A program made the position numbers and the translations under genes. Source: Escherichia coli (GTDB lineage: Bacteria; Pseudomonadota; Gammaproteobacteria; Enterobacterales; Enterobacteriaceae). Taken from it: 64,000 nt of DNA. How positions within the stretch are numbered: the first letter of the stretch is position 1; each line of letters begins with the position of its first letter. Location: assembly GCF_022846255.1 (NCBI RefSeq), contig NZ_AP025682.1, one strand, 5' to 3'. Below are positions 49,436 to 50,572 of this stretch, one piece after another. Under the pieces are notes generated by a model, which worked only from the letters and a program-made list of their open reading frames with translations, had not been told where the DNA came from and did not search any database.

Positions 49436-49929
49436 AAACTATACGCCTCTTGATTTAATTCAGGAGGCCTTTTATGTATGATCAAGAATTTTATCTTCGA
49501 TAATCTCATAATTTTAGCAGCGCCATTTATGATAAAAAATCTCTTAAAACCAATCTAATCTTTTTCTTCCTCTGTGTATTTGTTCCCCGTATGGCGTCAT
49601 AATTTATGCATACGTAATGCGGGATAGTTACAATATGCAGCGATAGCGCTAAGTTTTAGTTAAAATCCCCCATTAGCGGGATATGGGGATCTCTGGGAGG
49701 TTCAGGTTTTAGCATCGCGACTTTAATACGACAGACGCTGGTGACGATGATGACAAGCAGTGACTCTTCCGAATAAGGTTCCCACTGACTAATTGGAGCG
49801 CGCTTCGCAATAACATCTCCTTCGCCCAGTATTGGGAAAAGTAGATACGTTCAAACAGTGTACGCTGTTTCGTCTCACAGTTCACGAGATTGATGATCGA
49901 TGAACAGGCAATATAAACCTTGCAGTGGC

Positions 49930-50010
49930 GATCGAGCATTACAATGAAAACCATCCGCATAGTGCGTTGGGTTATCGCTCTCCGCGAGAATATCGACGTC
50001 AGCGGGTAAT
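49930..50010 (+). pseudogene. C-terminal remnant of a DDE transposase (IS3-family-like)
   Basis: Hand translation ...[30 protein letters not shown] resembles the conserved C-terminus of IS3-family OrfB (..YN..R.HSALGY..P..Y..); no intact upstream ORF. Confidence 0.4.
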
Positions 50011-50011
50011 G

Positions 50012-50572
50012 TTAACTTAAGATACAGCCCCTGTCTGGAAATAAGGGGGCAAGAACACCCGCATCGGTAACTATTATGACTCTGGCCACAGGGTTTACAG
50101 CCTCGGCAAGGGCATCTGGGAAGTTTTTTTGTATCTGCGAGTTCTGCTGTTTTTCTGACGGGACTACCCAGCTTAACAGGGGAAGCGAGCATCCATCGCA
50201 GAGCAGGCTGGCGCGGAGCACATGATGCTCCTGAGATGAATATCCACTCCAGTCAACGGCGATGACACAAAGAGATAGCTGGCTAGTCAGCATGGCAATA
50301 ATATTACTGAAAATCGGTGGGATATCGCGGTGAAGAGATTCATTACCGAGCAGTCGGTCAACGCGTTTGATTTTATTTTTGACCCGAGCCAAGCCGGGTA
50401 AATAACGCCCGATGCTGGTCAACGTCAGTGATGCGCCATTGATGAGAGCGATGGTGGCATCCAGCAAAGCATTTTGTCGGTATTTGCGAAACGGTGCTAA
50501 CGCATCGTGGAAAAAATTCTGACATACTTGTCGAGCAGGCATAGAAGCGATCTCATTGAATTGGTTGCACAA
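50012..50572 (-). pseudogene. IS4-family (IS10-like) transposase, N-terminal 186-aa fragment
   Basis: LTLTSIGRYLPGLARVKNKIKRVDRLLGNESLH ... CVIAVDWSGYSSQEHHVLRASL ... VIIVTDAGV aligns by eye with my recollection of the IS10 transposase N-terminal half; ORF ends prematurely. Confidence 0.6.

Follow-up and report, generated by a model that had tools for sequence, protein, structure and literature searches.

A probable nested insertion-sequence scar between the nanXY genes and a contact-dependent-inhibition module in Escherichia coli

Features between nanXY and the cdiA-CT/cdiI module

The locus lies in a 64,000-nucleotide stretch of Escherichia coli DNA (hereafter the window), in which the nanXY sialic-acid genes are followed by a short run of degenerate sequence and then by a toxin-immunity module for contact-dependent inhibition (cdi). 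We listed the open reading frames (ORFs) for positions 49000-51200 and typed the fragments with Pfam, NCBIfam and blastn (Table 1). A preliminary description had placed transposase debris at 49440-50572, between metabolic cargo and a toxin-like cassette. That setting agrees with ours, as nanXY lies on one side and the cdiA-CT/cdiI toxin-immunity module on the other, but both limits had to be moved. The first 475 bp (49440-49915) are K-12-type backbone with a frameshifted ythA and a yjhD relic and hold no insertion-sequence (IS) debris. On the right, the IS4-type relic extends 63 bp further, to 50635, including its terminal inverted repeat.

Table 1. Features in and around the scar, in window coordinates.
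Feature	Position	Strand	Evidence or remark
IS911-like IS3-family element	43343-44601		64% identical to IS911
IS630-family transposase ORF, 343 aa	45341-46372		apparently intact
nanY end	49435
Terminator-like hairpin just 3' of nanY	49445-49468	+	consensus scan only; backbone, not IS-derived
ythA small-protein pseudogene	49478-49602	+	1-bp deletion in A-run
yjhD relic (PGAP 'surface-adhesin E family protein') with the first few yjhE-region bases	49626-49903	-
Filler of uncertain origin at the backbone/ISEc48 joint, 12 bp	49904-49915	.	ACAGGCAATATA
ISEc48 (IS3 family, IS2 group) right-end relic, 142 bp	49916-50057	+	blastn, Pfam, NCBIfam
Read-through tail of the truncated IS4-type frame, 14 codons and stop	50012-50057	-	ORF list, breakpoint alignment
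Unnamed IS4-family, IS10-subgroup left-end relic, nt 1-578 of 1312	50058-50635	-	NCBIfam, blastn
Spacer between the IS4-type left end and the cdiI stop codon, 30 bp	50636-50665	.	sequence, fold
cdiI-type immunity gene, 106 aa	50666-50986	-	context, outside the debris
cdiA-CT toxin end, frameshifted	frames 51180-51641, 51000-51155	-
cdiB fragments	51583-51828, 51849-52319, 52338-52997	-
IS30-family transposase ORF, 383 aa	53972-55123		apparently intact
dGTP triphosphohydrolase-type ORF, 417 aa	55965-57218

As far as window position 49903, which corresponds to L012:4875 of the NC_000913 locus, the backbone side is 94% identical to K-12; the homology stops there, a little beyond the start of yjhD and 14 nt inside yjhE, a pseudogene in K-12. 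A sensitive blastn search with 49640-50058 likewise found 49640-49903 about 95% identical to the U90/K-12-type backbone 3' of ythA. Alignment shows the hairpin behind nanY to be kept in the K-12-type strain U90 and in NC101. The ythA gene has 41 intact codons in U90 and K-12; the base missing from the window is visible in the alignment, and in M19 and NC101 the corresponding position carries the PGAP label 'ythA, frameshifted'.

As for yjhD, the relic ends near 49885-49912, in the last stretch of the backbone homology, and its lower limit of about 49626 was inferred from the K-12 yjhD coordinates. In NC101-like genomes, PGAP annotates a 101-codon 'surface-adhesin E family protein' at 49656-49961 (minus strand) with its start codon within the ISEc48 fragment; this frame is a chimeric ORF on the yjhD relic. 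A further 1-bp deletion in the window (the yjhD relic here lacks one base relative to NC101, U90 and K-12) breaks this frame and leaves one of 83 codons (49709-49960, minus strand). We rejected the 'surface-adhesin E' label, because the match to Pfam Adhesin_E (E=0.048) is under the cut-off. The filler that follows has no clean match to the backbone (U90/K-12) or to five ISEc48/IS2 copies, and shows a patchy GAAC/GGCA likeness to ISEc48. The joint at the filler is internal to ISEc48 and therefore points to deletion or illegitimate recombination rather than to a transposition end.

On the far side, the cdiI-type gene has no Pfam or NCBIfam match; in NC101 it (protein WP_000355946.1) lies directly downstream of cdiA, annotated as 'contact-dependent inhibition effector tRNA nuclease'. 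Nearly all of cdiA is deleted in the window, with cdiA-CT fused directly to the fragmented cdiB at about 51590. This fusion was not found among 5,426 complete genomes, and the collinearity with M19 and NC101 stops at 51590. The intact cdiI suggests that immunity has been kept without toxin delivery. The island is a mosaic, which also holds a fimbrial usher and chaperone. Its ORF at 55965-57218 matches the NCBIfam model 'anti-phage deoxyguanosine triphosphatase' with E=6.6e-85, under that model's cut-off, and is possibly a defence gene. No other copies of ISEc48 or of the IS4-type element were found in the 64-kb window.

Two insertion-sequence relics and their joint

The debris had been described as an IS3-like transposase C-terminus and an IS10-like N-terminal fragment, for which alignment to reference IS sequences was proposed as the check. 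This alignment returned an IS3-family right-end piece and an IS4-family left-end piece on opposite strands, abutting each other, and both matches are far above chance level. The IS3-like C-terminus was borne out as a 142-bp right-end/C-terminal piece and could be assigned specifically to ISEc48. It is 99.3% identical in blastn (142-144 bp, E=2e-63) to loci annotated by PGAP as 'IS3-like element ISEc48 family transposase', including locus L003, and IS2 itself is about 78% identical across the same stretch. The relic consists of the last 35 transposase codons (stop at 50018-50020) and the 37-bp end, and holds a 31-codon plus-strand frame ending at 50020. It matches Pfam rve_3 at model positions 45-67 of 67 with 29.6 bits (cut-off 26.5) and NCBIfam IS2 TnpB at model positions 249-289 of 301 with E=2.2e-13.

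With respect to the ISEc48 copy of strain TOE17 (locus L018), which carries a complete transposase CDS (699-1906) and a right end at 1943, the relic corresponds to positions 1802-1943. Its position is stated relative to the transposase CDS and the right end only; no intact two-ended ISEc48 was present among the copies retrieved, all of which were shortened by ISEc8 or IS1. Most of the retrieved ISEc48 copies are relics themselves, and on the pO157-like EHEC haemolysin plasmids (L003 375-2642; L008 424-2691) ISEc48 is 5'-truncated by ISEc8 (IS66 family) beside ehxD.

The right repeat TTAAGATACAGCCCCTGTCTGGAAATAAGGGGGCAAGAACA, of the 5'-TG...CA-3' type, is complete in the window and ends ...GAACA, with its final CA at 50057; the left end is missing. 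When the window, ISEc48 and IS2 were aligned together, they showed a common terminal repeat (...TGTCTGGAAATAAGGGGGCAAGAACA), and since all three flanks diverge directly after the CA, the right terminus of ISEc48 is intact. Compared with full ISEc48, about 11% survives in the window, without the left end, OrfA, the frameshift site and the DDE core. The reference copy in TOE17 is annotated with a 'programmed frameshift', and the corresponding region is deleted here. The catalytic residues of the rve-type (DDE) core are likewise deleted, leaving the extreme C-terminus alone.

The partner on the minus strand starts with an intact left terminal repeat, CTGAGGAATCCC, at 50635-50624, and four full or near-full copies of the same element have the same CTGAGGAATCCC end. 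A 93-nt leader precedes the ATG at 50542 and 162 N-terminal codons, and residues 1-162 retain the first catalytic-region D (VIAVDWSG). The truncated frame has 168 native codons and, with an upstream TTG start and the read-through tail, makes up the minus-strand ORF of 186 codons (50572-50012, starting MCNQFNEIASMPARQVCQNFF...). The relic matches NCBIfam transpos_IS4_2 with E=1.2e-33 at model positions 1-127 of 340. A full-length copy of 1312 bp on plasmid pRHB22-C23_2 (L011 1908-3219; CP057571.1, about 46955-48266) is 97.1% identical to it over 582 bp and contains one in-frame stop. The chromosomal copy of strain KKo003 (L004 3005-4316, 1312 bp, tyrT/rtT-narI) is 84% identical and encodes an intact 400-aa transposase, and a third copy, in Ec387, has a 198-bp internal deletion.

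The full-length element has the ends CTGAGGAATCCC.../...GGGGATCCCTCAG and is flanked by 9(-10)-bp duplications. The flanking repeats of the relatives are CGCCGGAGC/CGCCGAAGC, CGCCGTAGC(G) and CGCCCCGGC(G); in the window, the right end is missing. The intact KKo003 transposase has a YREK motif, YSRRMQIEQNSRDEK, at residue 283, with the spacing Y-(2)-R-(3)-E-(6)-K. Elements of the IS10 subgroup of the IS4 family are 1200-1350 bp long, with 5'-CT ends, 9-bp repeats and the YREK motif (De Palmenaer et al., 2008, PMC2266710, Table 1), and we place the present element in this subgroup because its 1312 bp, 5'-CT ends, 9(-10)-bp repeats and YREK fit that definition. The PGAP label is 'IS4 family transposase', nothing finer. 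The earlier IS10-like assignment is thus correct for the subgroup but not as an identity. The protein is 34.5% identical over 162 aa (E=1e-16) to loci annotated as IS10A or ISVsa5, which makes it a different IS, apparently an unnamed one, and IS10 (Tn10) gave no nucleotide-level match to the relic.

Like IS10, the full-length relatives of the relic possess a single transposase ORF, with DDE as well as YREK. Their terminus CTGAGGAATCCC resembles that of IS10, CTGATGAATCCCC. The leader RNA is predicted to fold into a long hairpin burying the AUG (z=-4.4), a hairpin over the start codon as in IS10 fold-back inhibition. An Rfam scan of 49300-50800 at E<=1 returned two chance-level hits (a lncRNA model and rne5), far under the gathering score, and hence no IS10-type antisense RNA or other known RNA in this interval, with RNA-OUT covered if Rfam holds it.

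The two relics indeed abut, but 47 bp away from the meeting point near 50010 given in the preliminary description: the joint lies at 50057/50058, give or take one base. Homology of the IS4-type relic to two full-length copies reaches 50058, after which these copies continue ...GGGTTTCCAG. Across the breakpoint, the full-length copies read ...ACCGATGCGGG TTTCCAG..., whereas the window reads ...ACCGATGCGGG TGTTCTTGCCCCC..., in which TGTTCTTGCC is the complement of the ISEc48 terminus. The tail of the truncated frame comes from the terminal repeat of ISEc48, read on the complementary strand, and this read-through accounts for the overlap of the two ORFs at 50012-50020. Because an IS terminus abuts the internal sequence of another IS, we consider the joint to be transposase-made; an insertion and an adjacent deletion by ISEc48 are indistinguishable here, since the other side of ISEc48 is gone.

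Comparison of the IS4-type relic with the copy in strain SMBL gave a dN/dS of 0.81 (10.8 non-synonymous and 4.2 synonymous differences), whereas comparison with the intact transposase gene of KKo003 gave 0.107, indicating neutral drift of the fragment since its truncation. A promoter scan found three sites versus 3.1 expected from shuffled sequences, hence no excess, and two terminator-like scan hits coincide with the GC-rich ISEc48 repeat. From the sequence, we conclude that the relic is presumably an inert scar, which may nevertheless exert a regulatory side effect, e.g., through outward transcription. The 186-codon and 31-codon ORFs, together with the chimeric yjhD start in some PGAP-annotated strains, should be treated as pseudogenes.

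Distribution of the scar, the SMBL variant and the insertion targets

Of 5,426 complete E. coli genomes, 66 carry the 1.23-kb stretch 49436-50665 with 99.4-99.6% identity, among them NC101, M19 and NGF1. In these genomes, the PGAP annotation runs from nanX, nanY and the frameshifted ythA, in some strains through the 'surface-adhesin E family protein', to an 'integrase core domain-containing protein, missing N-terminus' and an 'IS4 family transposase, missing C-terminus', and ends with a small hypothetical protein followed by cdiA or a cdiA-CT remnant. Given this annotation in the 66 genomes, the features are genuine and inherited, and they carry a pseudogene flag already. The scar, common to 66 complete genomes, is old and inherited and not a recent event of one strain. 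Its surroundings are less conserved: no complete genome covers 80% or more of a 16-kb query around the scar, and only 46523-51590 is collinear with M19 and NC101.

A chimeric query of longer ISEc48 and the relic found neither a longer ISEc48 nor the distal IS4-type half at the joint in any of the 5,426 complete genomes. The search for an empty site, with cdiI plus flank as the query, found none; its sole match was strain VTB97074v. There (L013 3340-3400), a different IS3-family element, whose end begins TGAACCGCCCCGG, lies 13 bp nearer the same cdiI stop codon, and the short 3' flank of cdiI has therefore been struck independently by two ISs.

A variant joint was found in strain SMBL (L006 5541-5621, aligned with window 50020-50100). 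The IS4-type breakpoint is identical, but its partner is the interior of an IS66-family tnpC, with no ISEc48 sequence at all. This type of joint is present in three genomes (SMBL and two others) versus 66 with the window type, and no intermediate between the two was found. The cdiA-CT/cdiI/IS4-type block of SMBL is 97.7% identical to the window, compared with 99.2-99.4% for M19 and NC101. A breakpoint without ISEc48 is not predicted by a simple history in which ISEc48 inserted and then decayed. In the SMBL lineage, the ISEc48 remnant may have been lost precisely at its terminus, or else ISEc48 may have come precisely to a joint that was older.

As for the targets of the IS10-subgroup element, the spacer next to cdiI contains CCCGCCC (minus strand), which pairs with a GGGCGGG inside the IS end, and the flank motif of the spacer recurs at other insertion sites. 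We examined the sites at window 50624-50665, L004 2985-3005 and 4316-4335, L007 3985-4006 and 5118-5130, L011 1885-1908 and 3219-3230, and L016 1685-1708. At five of six insertion sites, the left flank consists of an A-run, CCC(C)GC(C), N3-11 and GCG. Three copies with matching flanks at both ends have 9-10-bp duplications, CGCCNNNGC(G). The reconstructed target in KKo003 is a UUCG-loop terminator downstream of narI, and the GGGCGGG of the element, at about nt 20-27, can re-pair with CCCGCC of the flank. The element's CGCCNNNGCG within terminator-like hairpins looks different from the IS10 target, GCTNAGC. Tentatively, the unnamed element might insert specifically in GC-rich terminator-like hairpins and the orphan ISEc48 terminus might have stayed recombinogenic; we put this forward as a joint proposal that is somewhat doubtful. 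The SMBL joint may look as it does because a transposase acting in trans excised the ISEc48 remnant exactly at its end.

Origin of the scar and comparison with known islands

The locus is very probably a scar left by nested insertion sequences, without a function in itself. In this reading, the 1.3-kb IS10-subgroup element inserted 30 bp downstream of cdiI, as its intact left repeat at 50635 shows. The right terminus of ISEc48 then became joined to internal position 578 of this element, as the anatomy of the joint shows, whether ISEc48 simply inserted into the older IS or mediated a deletion adjacent to itself. A subsequent deletion presumably took about 1.2 kb (about 90%) of ISEc48 and sequence beyond, along with the distal 734 bp of the IS4-type element, had these survived until then, so that ISEc48 codon about -35 would have been joined via the 12-bp filler to the nanXY-ythA-yjhD backbone at the yjhD/yjhE boundary. 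Since then, as the dN/dS values show, the relic has decayed neutrally, and it has been inherited vertically or with the island.

The earlier proposal of successive insertions and deletions is in line with this anatomy. At one joint, the interior of the IS4-type element abuts an intact ISEc48 terminus, and at the other, the backbone abuts the interior of ISEc48, which demands at least one transposition plus one or more later deletions, although the order and number of the events cannot be fully reconstructed. Neither fragment can supply an active transposase, with the whole core missing from ISEc48 and two of the three DDE residues as well as YREK missing from the IS4-type relic. Neither is mobile on its own, because each retains one end only.

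Several other histories were weighed. It is possible, if not the history we favor, that ISEc48 was never inside the IS4-type element and that a deletion adjacent to its right end removed the sequence up to position 578. Such a deletion creates the same type of junction, an IS terminus against internal sequence, and the distal IS4-type half is absent from every genome examined; on the other hand, nothing separates it from a simple insertion, as ISEc48 has lost its left half and no target duplication survives. This history is one form of the main explanation and does not compete with it. We regard as improbable that an unrelated deletion first truncated the IS4-type element, that the joint to IS66 tnpC, as in SMBL, is ancestral, and that ISEc48 came to this joint later. 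The breakpoint shared with SMBL to the base and the greater divergence of the SMBL block would fit such an order. However, ISEc48 would have had to hit a pre-existing joint exactly, and the IS66 sequence would have had to be lost just as exactly afterwards; the SMBL type is the rare one, and on the ISEc48 side lies a genuine IS terminus, the mark of the event by which the joint arose.

N-terminal transposase fragments can inhibit related transposases, and the truncated IS4-type frame, open in all copies examined and preceded by an intact promoter-proximal leader and terminal repeat, could be imagined as a domesticated DNA-binding fragment serving as a transposition inhibitor or regulator. We rejected domestication on the dN/dS of about 0.8 between relic copies and consider it highly implausible: the start codon is sequestered in the leader hairpin, a scan of the leader found no sigma-70-like promoter, and the C-terminal tail is accidental sequence from the ISEc48 repeat. 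An assembly chimera or a chance resemblance of ORFs has nothing in its favor past the general risk at repeats and is practically negligible; the recurrence of the identical junction in 66 independent complete genomes from different laboratories, together with profile E-values down to 1e-33, refutes it.

The nested scar thus interpreted marks where, on a leuX-type island, the nanXY segment for sialic-acid scavenging was joined by recombination to the contact-dependent-inhibition module. As a lineage marker, it is common to the 66 genomes, NC101-like strains among them. It also means that IS activity, and not co-inheritance as a functional unit, brought the nanXY and cdi blocks together. Features of this kind are already known: ordinary genome scar tissue, which standard annotation marks as pseudogenes. 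Mildly novel are two leads only, the apparent targeting of terminator hairpins and the SMBL breakpoint with its different partner.

Similar arrangements are known from other E. coli islands. The cdi loci of E. coli lie on genomic islands with transposase and integrase genes between toxin/immunity modules (Ruhe et al., 2016, PMC4927057), and in the window, too, IS remnants directly flank a cdiA-CT/cdiI module on an island. The present joint is not described in that study, and the scar in the window parts cdiI from nanXY, not from another orphan module. The KpLE2/leuX island of K-12 has the same order, nanX-nanY-ythA-yjhD followed directly by nested, mutually interrupting IS fragments. In K-12, however, an IS911B/IS30D/IS600 nest lies 3' of yjhE, with other IS families and another breakpoint, and the yjhE fragment is kept with the fec genes beyond, whereas the window has the cdiA-CT/cdiI module on the far side. 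As K-12 carries IS911, IS30 and IS600 there, the yjhE-side boundary of the nanXY segment is a recurrent landing zone for insertion sequences.
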